Of a DNA stretch of 26,387 bases, positions 11,590 to 26,387 are shown in pieces (the first letter of the stretch is position 1; the number at the start of each line of letters is the position of its first letter). The DNA lies in NCBI GenBank assembly GCA_002322525.1, contig DCOU01000038.1:1-26387 (forward strand). The letters are read 5' to 3'. The position numbers and the translations under genes are program-made. This DNA is from Candidatus Omnitrophica bacterium UBA1562. Lineage in GTDB: Bacteria; Omnitrophota; Gorgyraeia; Gygaellales; Profunditerraquicolaceae. A model generated the notes under the pieces. It worked only from the letters and a program-made list of their open reading frames with translations, made no database searches and had not been told where the DNA came from.

Positions 11590-12257
11590 TTATTTCTTGT
11601 TCTTCAAGGTTTCGAGAACAGCGTTTGAGGCATTAGCAACAAACAGAGAGGAAATAAAGAGGCCGTATGCTGGTATAAACTTAAATACTAAAAATGCGGT
11701 TATTCCTGCAATGCTGCCAAAAGTAAACCCCGTTACACCCCACCCTGAAGTGAGGCATTCTGGGTGTAACGGGGTAAAACCTTTGGCTAGCCCAAGGCCT
11801 GATGTCTTGGGTTCAAGGATTAATCTGCTGGGTAAGCAATATATATCCCAAGGGCTATTATCAAGTAGATATTCGACTCTATGTTCCAGGTAAGGGGAAT
11901 CTTAAAAAGCGTAGCAGTAAAGAGCGCAAAGTTTGCCGGATTAAAGATGTGCCGCTCTTTATATCGGACAATGTTCTTAGAGATAATCGCCAATAGAGAA
12001 AAAATAAACAGGAAATACCAGGATTGGTGATAATCGATAATGCCTGCTACAATAAATCCAGAGATTATCGCACTCCTAGGTTTAACCCTTTGGTGAAAAA
12101 GAAATCGTTTAATAATAAAATCGCTGCTCGCAGCAATAAAGATACCTCCCAATACCCAGAGACTGAAACGCGGGCTTTCTTGAGGTAGTTTGACAAGAAA
12201 AAGAACACTTAATAGAATTATTAACTGATTTCTTTTATCGCTTAAAAATTTCCTCAC
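11590..12257 (-). pseudogene. Stand-alone RnfD/NqrB-like membrane protein, broken by an internal deletion/frameshift near 11835
   Basis: Frame 1 from the GTG at 12257: SAIISGFIVA...AIISKNI...RHIFNPANF, stopping at 11820. Frame 2: LILEPKTSGLG...GFTFGSIAG..., ending at TAA 11590. The expected middle segment appears missing. Confidence 0.75.
11728..11774. mobile_element. 47-bp palindromic MITE-like insertion, in frame in the RnfD-like gene
   Basis: Perfect 13-bp IR CCCCGTTACACCC/GGGTGTAACGGGG, flanked by TAAA at 11724-11727 and 11775-11778. 51 nt equals 17 codons with no stop on the - strand. Confidence 0.9.
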
Positions 12258-12362
12258 CCCGTTACAAATTTTATATACCTTTGTTTCGCTGCAATTACAT
12301 CCTTCCATTGTCATTTCAAAATCACTTTTATATTTTAGTATTTATCAGAATTTGTAACGGGG
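12257..12362. mobile_element. 106-bp palindromic MITE-like insertion at a stop/start overlap
   Basis: Perfect 14-bp IR CCCCGTTACAAATT/AATTTGTAACGGGG, flanked by CTCA at 12253-12256 and 12363-12366. Removal restores the GAGTGAGGAAA overlap (TGA stop / GTG start). Confidence 0.9.
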
Positions 12363-12363
12363 C

Positions 12364-12882
12364 TCACTCTTTGACTACTAACATTGCCTTCATCGTATTA
12401 TGGCCTTTGCCGCAATATATAGAGCACAAAATGTCAAATTCGCCATTTTTGTCTGCTACAAATTCTATCCTCTGCGTCTGGTCTTTTTTTACCGGCACAT
12501 TTATATTATATTCTTCAATATAGACTCCGTGTGGGACATCGCGAGATATAGCAAGTATTTTTGCGATATCACCTTTTTTAACTTCAATTACCTCGGGCGA
12601 GAAACCAAACTGATAAGCCTCTAAATTAAATTCTTTTATTTTTGTAATATACTTTTGCGGCTCTTTTTTAAACTCCTCTATGCACATCGGGCAGCAGAAA
12701 TAATAGGTCTTGCCCTCATAGGTATAGGAGTATTCTTTTGAGGCTGGTTCATGTATCACAGGGCAGATGCCTAAATTTTGTTGCACCTTACTTGCCTCTC
12801 GCATCATATGATGTCCTTCATTGGCATAAGTCAAAGTCAATCCTAAGGCCCATATTAAAATTATATTGAATATTAATCTCAT
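12364..12882 (-). CDS. Secreted YHS-domain + CuA-type cupredoxin protein
   Basis: Signal peptide, HHMM, a YHS motif (CPV...[24 protein letters not shown]), then DVPHG...[12 protein letters not shown] (H...C-x3-C-x3-H-x2-M CuA ligand pattern). RBS AGGGGGG. Confidence 0.88.
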
Positions 12883-12896
12883 TTTATACCCCCCCT

Positions 12897-23777: not shown

Positions 23778-23785
23778 ATTTGACT

Positions 23786-24943
23786 TTAATGTTGGTGTTC
23801 AGGCGGTCTTGTTTCTTCTTTTGAACCCAAGGCACCGCCGTAGGCGGCTGCCGCTACACCGCTAATCTGGCTCTGAGAATCAATCAAAAAGTTTGCCCTG
23901 GTAACGACTTTATCATTCTCTTTTAGACCGCTTACAACAGGATAGAATCTTTGTTTCTTTCCGTCAATAAAAGCGACTGCTTCCGGACCTACTTCTACTT
24001 CCTTACCTAAATATGAACCGCCTCCCAAATCTAAATAAACAATCTTGCGCATGCCTGTATCCAACAGGGCATCTATGGGTAATGCCAATACAAACAGATG
24101 CTTGCCGTTACTATCGGTTAGATAGGATTCAATAAAAATATCCACGTACATCTGCGGTTTTAATTTTAGCTCTGGGTTTTCTATTTTCGCCCTGATACGC
24201 ACAGACCTGGTCATCGGATCGAGAACAGGATCTATCGCTTCAACTTTCCCCTTAAACTCTTCTCCGGGGAAACTCTGCGAAACGATTTTGATTGGTAAAT
24301 TTACTTTAATCCAACTTAACTCATATTCATACACATCCGCGTAAACCCATACGTACGGACTTTCCTTGTCAGAAATAATTAGGCTACGGTCAGCTTTTTT
24401 TTGGACTGAAACCTCATTTATCTGGTCTTCGCTTAATCCGCTCAAGCGCAATTTAAACCGCGCTGCTTCAATCAAGGCCTCGATACGTGCCTTGACTTCA
24501 GAAATCTGGCTTTTTTCTAAATCCTGCTTGGCATTGACTGCCTGAATAAGCTCTTCTTCTGCCTTATATAACTCTGGATCATACGCAATCCGGCCTACGG
24601 TGCGGATTTCTTTAAATAAATACTTGAAGGTAACCGGCTCAACACTAACACCAGCCAGAAATATGTCTCTCTCGCTTAATTTGACAATATTTTGAACATT
24701 AGATTCTGCGGGCTTAGAGGATGCCTCTTCCTCATATACGGGAATATAATCCATCCCCATGTGGTCTTTGGCCGGGACATCAGAAGTTATAGCAGGATTC
24801 ATGGGATTGCGATAATATAGAATCTTACGTGATTTCTTCCCGTCTTTGGCATCCACAGTTTGTATGGAAAATAAAAACATTCCTAAAACAACAAATATAA
24901 CCGGCGCTGCCATACTAAATTTATTTATCTTATATTTTTTCAT
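23786..24943 (-). CDS. cusB: CusB-type periplasmic adaptor
   Basis: YYRNPMNP...DHMGMDYIPVY, VWVYADVYE, TRSVRIR, LKPQMY and ANFLIDSQS. Confidence 0.93.
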   Translation of the reverse strand: MKKYKINKFSMAAPVIFVVLGMFLFSIQTVDAKDGKKSRKILYYRNPMNPAITSDVPAKDHMGMDYIPVYEEEASSKPAESNVQNIVKLSERDIFLAGVSVEPVTFKYLFKEIRTVGRIAYDPELYKAEEELIQAVNAKQDLEKSQISEVKARIEALIEAARFKLRLSGLSEDQINEVSVQKKADRSLIISDKESPYVWVYADVYEYELSWIKVNLPIKIVSQSFPGEEFKGKVEAIDPVLDPMTRSVRIRAKIENPELKLKPQMYVDIFIESYLTDSNGKHLFVLALPIDALLDTGMRKIVYLDLGGGSYLGKEVEVGPEAVAFIDGKKQRFYPVVSGLKENDKVVTRANFLIDSQSQISGVAAAAYGGALGSKEETRPPEHQH

Positions 24944-26259
24944 CTCTTCACCTCGATTAATTGCAGTCCTACTATACGTTCCAAGTCCGCCAGGTTCATA
25001 TTATACTCCACTAATGCCTTATAATAATCCATCTTTGTTTCAATCAACATCCGTTCATTATCCAAGAGCATCATTATATTGCCTTTGCCCGAACGATATC
25101 CGGAAAGCGAAGCCCGAATAGAGCTCTCTAATAAAGGTATCTGATTATCCTTATATAGAGCAATCTTATTTTGGGCAATAGAAACCTTGGTTGCCAAATC
25201 TTTAGTCTGAGACAATGCCATATTCTTCATTGCCTGATAGCTGGCTTTCGCTTCCTCTAAATTTGTAATCGCCTCTTTTACCTCATAACGCTGTTTTGTC
25301 CAGAACCAAAAGGGGAGGGTAAATGCCATCATCAAATCCCAGGGGCCTATCCCGCCGGCGGTAAATCCCCTTAAACCTATCTCTGCCATTAAATCCGGGA
25401 AGAAGCTCCGTTTGGCTAATGACTTGGCGTATTTGTTCTTTTCTATGGCATAGGAGAACATAAGTAGCTCCGGCTGATTCTCTATGGTAAGCCGATACAG
25501 AGAATCTATATCTACCTTAAAAGATGCGTCTTCTTCTAATTCAACTGCACCCAACGACGCTTCCGGTTCCCGGTTTAACAAGGTATTCAACCGGGTTCTC
25601 TTGGCGGATTGCCCTTCCTTTAGATTCCGGATATGCGTGGAGAGGCTGGCGATCTCCAGATTTATTTTAAAAAGCTCTTCCTGAGGAATATCCCCGATAA
25701 TATATTTTGCCTCAGCAATCTTGGCGATATTTTTTAAGAAAGCAAGGCTGGCTTCGTTTAATTCCGTTTCTTTATAGTTCATAAATAAATCATAATAAGC
25801 ATTCTTAACTTCATTTATAACGTCCAATTCTTTATTTTTATAATCTGCGGAAAACATCTGGGATTCTATAAGCGCAATCTTTCCTTTTAAAGATAACTTA
25901 CCAAATAAGGGAAACATTTGACTAACAGAAAGCATTCTATCTTCTGGCATGGTGCGGTCTAATTTTAAAGTTCCTTTTTGTATCTTCATAAAAGAAAAAC
26001 CCACGGTTGGATTATCAAGTGACTTTGCCTGGGGAACTCTTGCCAAGGATGCCTCCCAGCGTTTTTTTGCTGCAAGAATCTCAGGGTTATTCTGGATTGC
26101 CTCTTTAAGCAAAGAGTCCAAAGAAAGCAACTCATCCGAATATAAGATAGTATTACTCAGAATAAATATGTTAACCAAAAATAAAATAATTCCCGTTAGA
26201 AATTTTTTCCTAATAGAGGATTTGCATATTTCTAAAGGGATAAATATTTTTCTTATCAT
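24940..26259 (-). CDS. TolC-family outer-membrane efflux protein (CusC/CzcC-like) with a palindromic insertion in its signal peptide
   Basis: A...NPEILAA, SQMFPLFGKL, VKNAY, QPEL, FFPDL and Y...G...LLD...; first gene of the CBA triad. Confidence 0.9.
   Translation of the reverse strand: MIRKIFIPLEICKSSIRKKFLTGIILFLVNIFILSNTILYSDELLSLDSLLKEAIQNNPEILAAKKRWEASLARVPQAKSLDNPTVGFSFMKIQKGTLKLDRTMPEDRMLSVSQMFPLFGKLSLKGKIALIESQMFSADYKNKELDVINEVKNAYYDLFMNYKETELNEASLAFLKNIAKIAEAKYIIGDIPQEELFKINLEIASLSTHIRNLKEGQSAKRTRLNTLLNREPEASLGAVELEEDASFKVDIDSLYRLTIENQPELLMFSYAIEKNKYAKSLAKRSFFPDLMAEIGLRGFTAGGIGPWDLMMAFTLPFWFWTKQRYEVKEAITNLEEAKASYQAMKNMALSQTKDLATKVSIAQNKIALYKDNQIPLLESSIRASLSGYRSGKGNIMMLLDNERMLIETKMDYYKALVEYNMNLADLERIVGLQLIEVKR
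26191..26240. mobile_element. 50-bp palindromic MITE-like insertion, in frame in the TolC signal peptide
   Basis: IR TCCCGTTAGAAAT/ATTTCTAAAGGGA (1 mismatch), with flanks TAAT/TAAA (1 mismatch). 54 nt adds PLEICKSSIRKKFLTGII; removal gives MIRKIFILFLVNIFILSNTILYS. Confidence 0.8.
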
Positions 26260-26261
26260 TT

Positions 26262-26387
26262 TTAGGCTATCTTTCTGAATCTTGAGATTAACTCCATAAT
26301 TTCATCTATCTTTTTCTGCTTCTCAAGCTCAGATTTGCCCCTGAAGGCAGTGATTACGCAGCCATCCACGTGTTTTCTGAAGACCTC
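26262..26387 (-). CDS. csoR: CsoR/RcnR-family metal-sensing repressor, 3' part
   Basis: Not in the track. EVFRKHVDGCVITAFRGKSELEKQKKIDEIMELISRF* has the H-x3-C motif. It lies 2 nt before tolC. Confidence 0.88.
   Translation of the reverse strand, partial: EVFRKHVDGCVITAFRGKSELEKQKKIDEIMELISRFRKIA

Follow-up and report, generated by a model that had tools for sequence, protein, structure and literature searches.

The window analysed here, the whole 26,387-nt stretch of DNA from a groundwater source, carries an island of 14-15 closely packed and co-directional genes on the minus strand, from position 26387 down to 11820, whose products were assigned by profile matches to Pfam and NCBIfam. Gaps between neighbouring genes range from -4 to 86 nt with a single exception of 333 nt between cusA and the following YHS gene, and no excess of internal terminators was seen across the island. 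Its boundary lies at about 11590, the next gene being Rrf2 with a strong promoter match of its own (11570-11543). This gene map, together with the Cu-type Cys-His-Cys ligands of the repressor, agrees with a first-pass annotation that had described about 15 tightly spaced genes behind a CsoR-type regulator. The profile matches likewise recovered the gene content that it had listed, i.e., CusCBA, CopA, YHS proteins, DUF1573/rhodanese, mini-proteins, and an RnfD-like protein.

The first gene, csoR (26262..26387), which encodes a Cu(I)-sensing repressor, is represented in the window by its last 41 codons only because the contig ends there, but L025, a longer contig from this organism, has the complete gene (998-1282; 94 aa, PF02583) and its promoter. 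The Cys, His, and Cys ligands align with those in structures 4M1P and 4ADZ, which identifies a Cu-type regulator, and the best-scoring NCBIfam model is that of RicR, a repressor that senses copper. Separate assemblies all break at one identical base within csoR. CsoR operators are G-tract sites (PMC3902906), and such a site, TTGACATAGGGTAGGGGGGTATGGTATACT, is found within the promoter 5' of csoR at six loci. This promoter is sigma-70-like, with the G-tract site forming its spacer (TTGACA-TAGGGTAGGGGGGTATGG-TATACT), and is identical or near-identical in this organism, in genomes G001, G030, G018, and G019, and in metagenome locus L129, while the sequence occurs only once in the genome under study (G000). 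A candidate for the upstream operator anticipated in the first-pass annotation is this conserved promoter/G-tract site on L025, but it is without the clear TAC-N9-GTA symmetry known from studied operators.

Directly downstream lies a tripartite pump. A cusC-type outer-membrane factor (OEP; 24940..26259; PF02321, E = 6e-45) starts 2 nt past the csoR stop and overlaps by 4 nt a cusB-type periplasmic adaptor (23786..24943; HlyD_D23/CusB matches), which is followed by a cusA-type heavy-metal RND pump (20544..23777; TIGR00914, 1034 bits against a cut-off of 701). The closest solved relative of this pump is E. coli CusA (863 bits, vs 541 bits for ZneA), all three Met of the Cu/Ag site are kept, and there is an HMBD-like insert at aa 145-173. 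Further downstream, copA (13241..15715; TIGR01511, 634 bits against a cut-off of 397) encodes a P1B-type Cu(I)-exporting ATPase with CPC and DKTGT motifs and one CxxC HMA domain; a domain scan found no CopZ gene within the island. Since cusCBA has a CusA-type Met site and copA a CPC motif, export of Cu(I) from the cytoplasm and from the periplasm is, as read from these motifs, encoded in one island. Two window genes are decayed, one of them being an 85-aa C-terminal remnant (12897..13154; ArsP_1 fragment) of an SO_0444-type Cu/Zn efflux permease, which covers positions 229-310 of the 351 in NF033936 (76 bits against a cut-off of 300) and is found at full length, fused to YHS, in G001 and L194. 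Between it and copA is a 22-aa membrane micro-ORF (13161..13229) with a TGA stop in frame with the next ORF; its homologue in L192 (14370-14459) has a Cys where the TGA stands.

The 333-nt gap after cusA contains a dispersed repeat (20225..20381, no strand assigned) that is not copper-specific: it matches about 40 other places in G000, in four cases over nearly its full length with 85-86% identity. The repeat is rich in hairpins and no second CsoR site was found in the gap, and therefore the ten downstream genes may be separately controlled.

The first of these ten genes encodes a 122-aa exported YHS protein (19842..20210; PF04945, 43 bits) with a signal peptide, an ICPV...FCCPVC motif, and a His-rich tail, which makes it a candidate periplasmic metal chaperone. 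A homologue also stands after cusA in G018, and a YHS::CuA protein does so in G031; more homologues are found 3' of cusCBA in G001, G030, L209, and L210. Next come a 41-43-aa mini lipoprotein with an ISGC lipobox and a His-rich C terminus (19701..19832), with homologues in L192, L113, and L193 and a 40-aa gene in the matching position in L210, and two exported DUF1573 proteins. One combines an SCGC motif with two rhodanese domains (18460..19644; PF07610, PF00581 twice), an architecture shared with L194, and has a 69% identical homologue in L116 (tblastn). The other is a CcmH-like (CCPC)::DUF1573 (SCPC) protein (17733..18443; Pfam/NCBIfam) that shares 58% identity with the N-terminal part of a 360-aa fusion in L192 and belongs to a family of >270 clusters, three of which have a C-terminal CuA cupredoxin fused. 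A 42-aa mini-protein with a PSCC motif (17589..17717) has conserved homologues (66-79% identical) in matching position in L192 and L137. Past copA and the permease remnant lie an exported YHS::CuA cupredoxin (12364..12882; PF04945 and PF13473) and the second decayed gene. The former matches the Thermus CuA domain from end to end, keeping the His, Cys, Cys, His, and Met, and its family comprises >110 clusters whose named members are mostly Omnitrophota. The latter is a truncated RnfD/NqrB-like membrane protein of 164 aa (11820..12314; weak sub-threshold PF03116 match), intact relatives of which measure 246-247 aa and are 36-46% identical in L192, L194, and G012. Its C-terminal remainder persists out of frame (11590..11819, minus strand) with a palindromic insert, where the frame LILEPKTS...LETLKNKK aligns with the C terminus of a 247-aa homologue and about 40 codons are missing.

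The gene immediately downstream of the PSCC mini-protein, separated from copA by 4 nt, encodes a cytoplasmic YHS::alpha-glucan phosphorylase (15720..17543; PF04945, 48 bits; TIGR02094, 576 bits against a cut-off of 192). With the exported YHS protein and YHS::CuA, the latter with its full ligand set, it completes the three different deployments of YHS that the first-pass annotation had proposed. The phosphorylase part is intact, with its PLP lysine kept, and in the YHS domain an Asp and three Cys are invariant across 26 homologues. We found no published description of this fusion in the literature. It has >100 fused homologues, and the fusion groups into about three clades. A P-type ATPase lies within 10 kb at 9 of 13 YHS-fused loci vs 10 of 96 YHS-less relatives, counts that come from related sequences and so overstate independence, and metal genes are present in all nine annotated contexts outside this organism (10 with L025). 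Many of the fused enzymes neighbour PMR1-type Ca/Mn pumps, and some copies adjoin the glycolytic/glucan genes PK, PFK, and TreT. That the fused enzyme adjoins ion pumps in many unrelated microbes suggests that metal stress and energy reserves are linked in a way not previously described, consistent with the report that a YHS domain can act as a copper switch on an enzyme (PMC4626032). Against such a link, glgP of Synechocystis goes down under copper, not up.

The same gene pool recurs 3' of csoR-cusCBA at the corresponding chromosomal position of a same-genus genome, and also in genomes of the same order and in further MAGs, the named homologues of which come from several phyla. In the same-genus genome, G001, the order is csoR-cusCBA-P2A ATPase-DUF1622-YHS-CcmH::DUF1573-YHS::SO_0444-RnfD-like-Rrf2-Fer4-HCP; subsets of the pool are found in G030, G018, G031, and G012, and the pool itself in L192, L193, L194, L209, and L210. 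The accessory genes are therefore not randomly assorted, as YHS, DUF1573 proteins, mini-proteins, YHS::phosphorylase, CuA cupredoxin, SO_0444 permease, and RnfD-like genes recur jointly, but they do so as shuffled modules rather than as a single conserved operon. Neither CopA (at E<=1e-60) nor a YHS-fused phosphorylase was found in any of the six other same-genus genomes searched. Modules are also joined by fusion: CcmH::DUF1573::CuA unites island parts, a KDPxCGM...FCSxxC YHS module is common to the phosphorylase and the SO_0444 permease, and the N terminus of CopA in L197 is a Pfam YHS domain. The proposal that efflux, thiol chemistry, electron transfer, and storage carbon are linked here is partly supported by this recurrence; against it, the RnfD-like and permease genes are decayed and a search of the 74%-complete assembly for heme-copper oxidase subunit I (PF00115) gave no match.

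We consider that this is probably a copper(I) resistance island made up of exchangeable modules, whose place on the chromosome, just 5' of Rrf2-Fer4-HCP, is conserved. Cu(I) would release CsoR and allow read-through of the entire co-directional string. The exported YHS protein and the His-rich lipoprotein may serve as periplasmic metal carriers replacing CusF, while the two DUF1573 proteins (one with the CcmH-like thiol motif, the other with the double rhodanese) and YHS::CuA would form a periplasmic thiol/redox set handling Cu-thiolate or Cu-sulfide species. By analogy with the mycobacterial adenylyl cyclase, the YHS domain of the phosphorylase could be a copper sensor that couples the activity of the neighbouring P-type pump to the breakdown of glycogen and the glycolytic ATP that this yields. 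The permease fragment and RnfD-like gene would be decayed remains of a fuller ancestral set. Copper induction and roles of island genes in electron transfer and carbon mobilisation are, in this scheme, predictions from gene content.

A different reading, which we judge unlikely, is that csoR-cusCBA and Rrf2-Fer4-HCP flank a recombination hot spot where transferred genes gather, that copper defence is limited to csoR, cusCBA, and copA, and that the phosphorylase is an ordinary glycogen enzyme with YHS as a structural, zinc-ribbon-like cap. Mosaic identities to G001 (85% for CsoR but 41% for CusA), the shared breakpoint of independent assemblies, and the repeats and decayed genes all fit this reading. 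The fused enzyme is moreover the sole phosphorylase found in the 74%-complete assembly, with glgA and glgC located away from the island, so it may simply be a housekeeping enzyme. Against it speak the co-occurrence of the same accessory families in distant lineages, the fusion of island modules to one another, the invariant YHS metal ligands, and the enrichment of metal-pump neighbours for YHS-fused but not YHS-less phosphorylases.

It is improbable that the YHS domain is instead non-regulatory and collects cytoplasmic Cu(I) for CopA or the permease, with the abundant phosphorylase as carrier. The absence of CopZ, the short phosphorylase/copA gap, and the YHS modules at the N termini of the permease and of CopA in a sister locus would suit such a hand-off, but PMR1-type Ca/Mn pumps, next to many of these enzymes, would not take Cu(I). 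P2-type ATPases are paired with YHS-less phosphorylases too (G001, G005, G017), which argues for a link to energy, not to metal. Also improbable is a reactive sulfur (sulfide/persulfide) island with a CstR-like regulator, in which the rhodanese, CcmH-like, and DUF1573 proteins would protect against sulfane sulfur in a sulfidic groundwater, with metal pumps secondary. Two rhodanese domains with active-site Cys, several Cys-rich exported proteins, the selenoprotein forms of DUF1573 and rhodanese families (typical of redox sites), and the groundwater origin speak for it. Against it are the regulator, which has retained the His of the Cu(I) C-H-C site and scores best with RicR/CsoR, and the Cu/Ag Met site of CusA, the CPC motif of CopA, and the full CuA site; the scan of window proteins showed neither persulfide dioxygenase nor SQR.

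The modular copper island that we favour resembles several known systems in part. CsoR has been described mainly from Gram-positive bacteria, where it controls copA and copZ (review, PMC9470648). With the CsoR-copZA operons of Bacillus subtilis, Mycobacterium tuberculosis, and Streptomyces lividans, the island shares a Cys-His-Cys CsoR with a G-tract site in the promoter of its own gene, and a downstream P1B CopA, but it lacks CopZ, its site has no clear TAC-N9-GTA palindrome, and its CsoR is followed by the tripartite cusCBA pump and some ten additional genes. CusA, with its Met triad, is closest to CusA of E. coli cusCFBA (CusRS), and an adaptor and outer-membrane factor are likewise present, while a cytoplasmic sensor and the lack of CusF are shared with Pseudomonas aeruginosa cusCBA (CueR). 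Unlike in both, the sensor is CsoR, CusA has an HMBD-like insert, and an exported YHS protein occupies the downstream slot expected for a chaperone. Archaea have TRASH-domain copper proteins, such as Sulfolobus CopT and CopM, a regulator and a small chaperone found with CopA. The island, in which weak TRASH matches were obtained (Pfam/NCBIfam scan), similarly encodes small TRASH/YHS-type Cys modules beside a CopA ATPase, but places them on a phosphorylase, a CuA protein, and an exported protein. The YHS-domain adenylyl cyclase of Mycobacterium phlei is turned on by micromolar copper (PMC4626032). As in the island, YHS (one Asp and three Cys, invariant here) is fused to an enzyme via a short linker, but our YHS is N-terminal and the enzyme is an alpha-glucan phosphorylase known from sequence alone. 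In muscle, glycogenolysis is coupled to SERCA and Na,K-ATPase, and glycogen phosphorylase has a physical or functional tie to P-type pumps, which it serves as a local source of ATP. The parallel is one of analogy, as the arrangement is not homologous, and the candidate bacterial link is genetic: adjacency of the fused enzyme to P1B and PMR1-type ATPases.

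The window spans an entire 26.4-kb contig of a 1.4-Mb metagenome-assembled genome that is 74% complete, and the same stretch is present in many groundwater and aquifer DNA runs. Named homologues of its YHS::CuA and YHS::phosphorylase, mostly from Omnitrophota, suggest that phylum as the source. From the contig end to about 11590, all genes lie on the minus strand. They begin with the final 41 codons of a csoR-family gene (26262-26387), followed in order by genes for an outer-membrane factor (OEP), a CusB-type adaptor, a CusA/CzcA-type RND pump, a YHS protein of 122 aa, a 43-aa ORF, a fusion of DUF1573 with two rhodanese domains, a fusion of a CcmH-like region with DUF1573, a 42-aa ORF, a YHS::alpha-glucan phosphorylase (TIGR02094), a Cu-type P1B ATPase (CopA), an 85-aa piece of an ArsP_1/SO_0444-type permease (12897-13154), a 172-aa YHS::cupredoxin and, last, a 164-aa membrane protein that matches RnfD/NqrB below threshold. 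The order is that obtained from Pfam and NCBIfam scans. Intergenic gaps range from −4 to 86 nt, with the sole exception of 333 nt downstream of cusA. A near-consensus promoter of its own precedes the gene downstream of the island, Rrf2, after which come Fer4 and the hybrid-cluster protein. The boundaries and gene list of the candidate copper island in the first-pass annotation are thus borne out by the domain scans, the minus-strand run and the separate Rrf2 promoter. The Rrf2-Fer4-hybrid-cluster protein genes (8936-11563; also in loci L204, L205 and L202) are a conserved downstream neighbour of copper genes in this bacterial family. Further along, a 144-aa Pyr_redox_2 ORF and a 70-aa ORF (6123-6778) resemble a split or shortened thioredoxin-reductase-like gene, of which versions of 300-308 aa lie upstream of csoR in locus L195 and in L025, which is a longer contig from the same organism.

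Assignment of the two pumps agrees with the initial reading. The RND pump scores above the TIGR00914 cut-off, is nearest to E. coli CusA (863 bits vs 541 for ZneA) and keeps the three Met of the E. coli CusA metal site (in LLYMP, IIMLE and RIDML). Together with the adjoining OEP and CusB-type genes, this Met site points to cusCBA being of the Cu/Ag efflux type (HME-RND). CusA also has an insert at aa 145-173 (23259-23345; NGYYCPAHPQKSYAQAGNCPIDGKPL), which is absent from E. coli CusA and similar to the HMBD motif that is usually carried by CusB-type adaptors. Profile scans of the window found neither CusF nor two-component genes, and the corresponding positions are occupied by the YHS protein after cusA and by CsoR before cusC. 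CopA scores 634 bits with TIGR01511 (cut-off 397), contains ACPCALG, FDKTGT and GMHCASC, and has two HMA domains, one with and one without CxxC. Score and motifs are those expected of a P1B-1 Cu(I) ATPase.

The regulator heading the island was correctly recognized as a CsoR-type repressor. The complete CsoR, 94 aa with PF02583, was obtained from L025; in alignments with the solved CsoR structures 4M1P and 4ADZ, its RYC...H...C residues fall on the Cu(I) ligands, and its best profile score is with the copper sensor RicR (62 bits vs 34 for RcnR and 30 for FrmR). Fold, Cys-His-Cys ligands and RicR score predict a Cu-type CsoR. The first-pass annotation had also proposed looking for the CsoR operator upstream of the window. 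In L025, a terminator-like hairpin is followed by TTGACA-TAGGGTAGGGGGGTATGG-TATACT, and this 31-base promoter site recurs with at most a few changes in five other loci, from the same genus (G001), the same family (G018 and G019), the same order (G030) and a metagenome contig (L129). In the genome of the window it is found once, on a small contig continuing the window. Studied CsoR operators are G-tract pseudopalindromes in a TAC-N9-GTA frame (PMC3902906). In our site, a G-tract conserved in all six loci lies between −35 and −10, in position to block RNA polymerase, but the TAC-N9-GTA symmetry is not evident. We therefore have a strong candidate for the operator, of which the conserved G-tract was found and the symmetry was not. 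No second site with three or fewer mismatches was found inside the island, and the gap downstream of cusA is filled by a repeat; because of this, read-through from the csoR promoter into the ten genes 3' of cusA is no more than a possibility. The repeat, a 141-bp symmetric element (20225-20381), was considered as a copper regulatory array and ruled out because it is dispersed: about 40 more matches lie elsewhere in the genome, and four of these are nearly full length (85-86% identity). Several independent assemblies (the starts of L026, L028 and L029) break at the identical base in csoR, and the csoR promoter and upstream thioredoxin-reductase-like gene are on a separate 1.5-kb contig (G000:C121) of the window's own assembly. 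The shared break suggests that strains differ there or that a repeat is present.

The three YHS domains (PF04945; 43, 48 and 43 bits vs a cut-off of 30.3) are, as the sequence had been read at first, differently deployed: alone, on the phosphorylase and on the CuA protein. Two copies lie behind signal peptides and follow the pattern ICPV...FCCPxC. The third, on the phosphorylase, is cytoplasmic and follows the pattern KDPxCGM...FCSxxC, in which all of 26 YHS::phosphorylases keep D4, C7, C27 and C31. The C-terminal domain of the YHS::cupredoxin aligns end to end with Thermus CuA (2CUA and 2LLN) and keeps the His, Cys, Cys, His and Met residues. A search of the 74%-complete assembly for heme-copper oxidase subunit I (PF00115), a partner for CuA, gave no match, and the window has no such catalytic subunit. 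The genes on either side of it are remnants here and intact in sister islands, that is, other loci with the same gene pool. The permease ORF covers only positions 229-310 of the 351 of NF033936 (76 bits vs a cut-off of 300), and even its full-length YHS-fused relative in locus L194 (113 bits) would at best be a distant SO_0444 member. The 164-aa RnfD-like ORF scores 18 bits against a cut-off of 27.7, lacks about 40 codons and has its conserved C terminus (LILEPKTS...) in another frame, with a palindromic insert. Its intact 247-aa relatives are also far under the RnfD cut-offs, which indicates a family only distantly RnfD-like, and no other rnf genes were found in the window. The electron-transfer role initially suggested for the island thus has little backing in this genome, because the RnfD-like gene is decayed and distant and PF00115 was not found. 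After copA there is also a 22-aa membrane micro-ORF (13161-13229, minus strand) with a TGA stop in frame with the 85-aa permease fragment. A homologue (L192:14370-14459) has Cys at the TGA position (KKGGCGCSGKK), and read-through would give a 110-aa four-helix protein. Decoding of this TGA as selenocysteine is not supported: the 74%-complete assembly yielded no selB above cut-off, no selD and no tRNA-Sec.

Random assortment of the accessory genes among relatives would have spoken against an extended copper system. It was not seen: the same pool is found behind csoR-cusCBA. In G001, a genome of the same genus, the island is upstream of Rrf2-Fer4-HCP as in the window, and csoR is followed by cusCBA, a PMR1-type P2A ATPase, DUF1622, YHS and CcmH::DUF1573, then by the YHS::SO_0444 permease at full length, the RnfD-like gene in intact form (247 aa) and a gene for a small exported protein. 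G030, from the same order, has csoR-cusCBA-P2A ATPase-DUF1622-YHS-CcmH::DUF1573::CuA-copA. Shorter versions occur in G018 (csoR-cusCBA-YHS), in G031 (cusCBA-YHS::CuA-permease) and in G012, where an intact RnfD-like gene overlaps the copA stop codon and precedes Rrf2-Fer4-HCP. Further contexts were fetched via homologues of YHS::phosphorylase or CcmH::DUF1573, whose names, where a source gives one, are Jettenia, Ignavibacteriales, Omnitrophota, Elusimicrobiota, Glassbacteria and Syntrophaceae. These contexts draw on one pool, in which HME-RND pumps and CopA or PMR1-type ATPases occur along with small YHS proteins, the His-rich mini-lipoprotein, cupredoxins, DUF1573 with rhodanese or CuA, and proteins of the YHS::SO_0444, RnfD-like and HD-GYP-like kinds. 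The accessory modules are also linked by fusions. At least three clusters join CcmH::DUF1573 to CuA, the same cytoplasmic YHS module forms the N terminus of the phosphorylase and of the SO_0444 permease, and one CopA carries a Pfam YHS domain at its N terminus. The arrangement is a mosaic and not a fixed block. CusA is only 41% identical between the window and G001, vs 85% for CsoR, and neither CopA (at E<=1e-60) nor a YHS-fused phosphorylase was found in the six other genomes of the genus that were searched. The PMR1-type P2A ATPase followed by a DUF1622 membrane protein is found between cusA and YHS in four loci (L202, L199, L209 and L192), and neither is in the window. An HD-GYP-like (HD_5) membrane protein lies directly 3' of YHS::phosphorylase in three (L192:9038-9943, L193:11837-12784 and L194:4935-5834); the HD protein of the window is shorter (8219-8842) and lies beyond the hybrid-cluster gene.

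The catalytic part of the YHS::phosphorylase scores 576 bits with TIGR02094 (cut-off 192) and keeps the pyridoxal-phosphate lysine, in a 10-residue stretch aligned with EASGTSGEKA of structure 9L6I, and the YHS domain stands where solved relatives have an N-terminal DUF3417 domain. There are more than 100 YHS::phosphorylases at 66-92% identity, and a protein atlas lists the fusion in three clusters, of which one is mostly archaeal. In a sample of 160 loci of the subfamily from genomes and metagenomes, with counts limited to loci flanked by 8 kb or more, a P-type ATPase is encoded within 10 kb of 9/13 YHS-fused and 10/96 YHS-less copies (8/11 and 2/80 under stricter definitions), among related sequences that are not phylogenetically independent. 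The automatic labels are imperfect (L076, L109 and L111 were wrongly labelled as YHS-fused, and L126 and L131 match from query residues 1 and 3 and are YHS-less in the tree), and two recounts led to the same conclusion. In a tree of the catalytic core, YHS-fused forms fall in about three clades, and the window copy groups with copies from a Brocadiaceae and an Ignavibacteriales MAG, not with the YHS-less copy of G005 from its own genus. This pattern is suggestive of horizontal transfer, and the fusion may have arisen more than once. YHS-less phosphorylases lie directly beside P2-type (Ca/Mn-like) ATPases in G017, G005 and G001 (loci L018, L019 and L020), and pairing of phosphorylase and pump therefore exists without the YHS domain.

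How might a phosphorylase serve a copper island? Some fused copies adjoin a pyruvate kinase, phosphofructokinase or trehalose-synthase-like gene, and the genome of the window has glgA and glgC, with no second phosphorylase found in the 74% that is assembled. Glycogenolysis is coupled to ion pumps in muscle. On the most economical reading, the YHS domain would report cytoplasmic Cu(I) to the phosphorylase, and the pumps would be supported by ATP from glycogen. The single biochemical precedent is a mycobacterial adenylyl cyclase that copper activates through a YHS domain containing one Asp and three Cys (PMC4626032), and these residues match those invariant in the 26 YHS::phosphorylases. In Synechocystis, glgP is repressed, not induced, by copper and is therefore no precedent, and we found no literature in which "YHS domain" and "phosphorylase" occur together. 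We put forward only tentatively, and with more doubt than confidence, the wider proposal that YHS::phosphorylase would be a glycogen phosphorylase gated by copper or another thiophilic metal, whose sensor cap would turn on the breakdown of reserve carbohydrate as cytoplasmic metal increases and feed glycolytic ATP to a neighboring P-type pump, a widespread and horizontally spread bacterial and archaeal counterpart of the coupling in muscle, and that DUF1573, CcmH, rhodanese and CuA would form an unrecognized anaerobic periplasmic copper-handling pathway. The literature search linked DUF1573 with copper only in selenoprotein lists. No RNA runs with island DNA were found; in two groundwater metatranscriptomes, fragments from relatives map to the phosphorylase and mini-ORF region at 80-90% identity and show neither co-transcription nor a Cu response.

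Copper defence has been described mostly from aerobic model bacteria. A different tool kit, used by small-genome anaerobes, emerges from this island and from related ones in Omnitrophota-like genomes and in MAGs that bear the names Brocadiaceae, Ignavibacteriales, Elusimicrobiota and others. It is made of a CsoR-headed cusCBA, exported YHS, DUF1573 and CuA proteins that would replace CusF and multicopper oxidase, and a metal-sensor domain on glycogen phosphorylase. Should glycogen use indeed be gated by this sensor, metal stress and energy reserves would be connected directly at the molecular level, and several large families annotated only as "YHS domain-containing" or "DUF1573" would acquire functions. 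The conserved promoter with its candidate operator offers a handle for reporter tests.

Comparison with known systems highlights both similarities and differences. CsoR is known mainly in Gram-positive bacteria with copZA. The regulators of cusCBA are CusRS in E. coli and CueR in P. aeruginosa, and the latter species likewise lacks CusF (PMC9470648). Unlike in E. coli, cusCBA in the island is headed by CsoR and not CusRS, and cusA is followed by a YHS protein, with no CusF in the window. Lack of CusF is shared with P. aeruginosa, but the regulator is CsoR here and CueR there. Judged by gene content, the combination of a CsoR-headed cusCBA, predicted exported YHS, DUF1573 and CuA proteins and a YHS-tagged phosphorylase next to a P-type pump differs from these known systems, and the arrangement recurs widely enough to be real.
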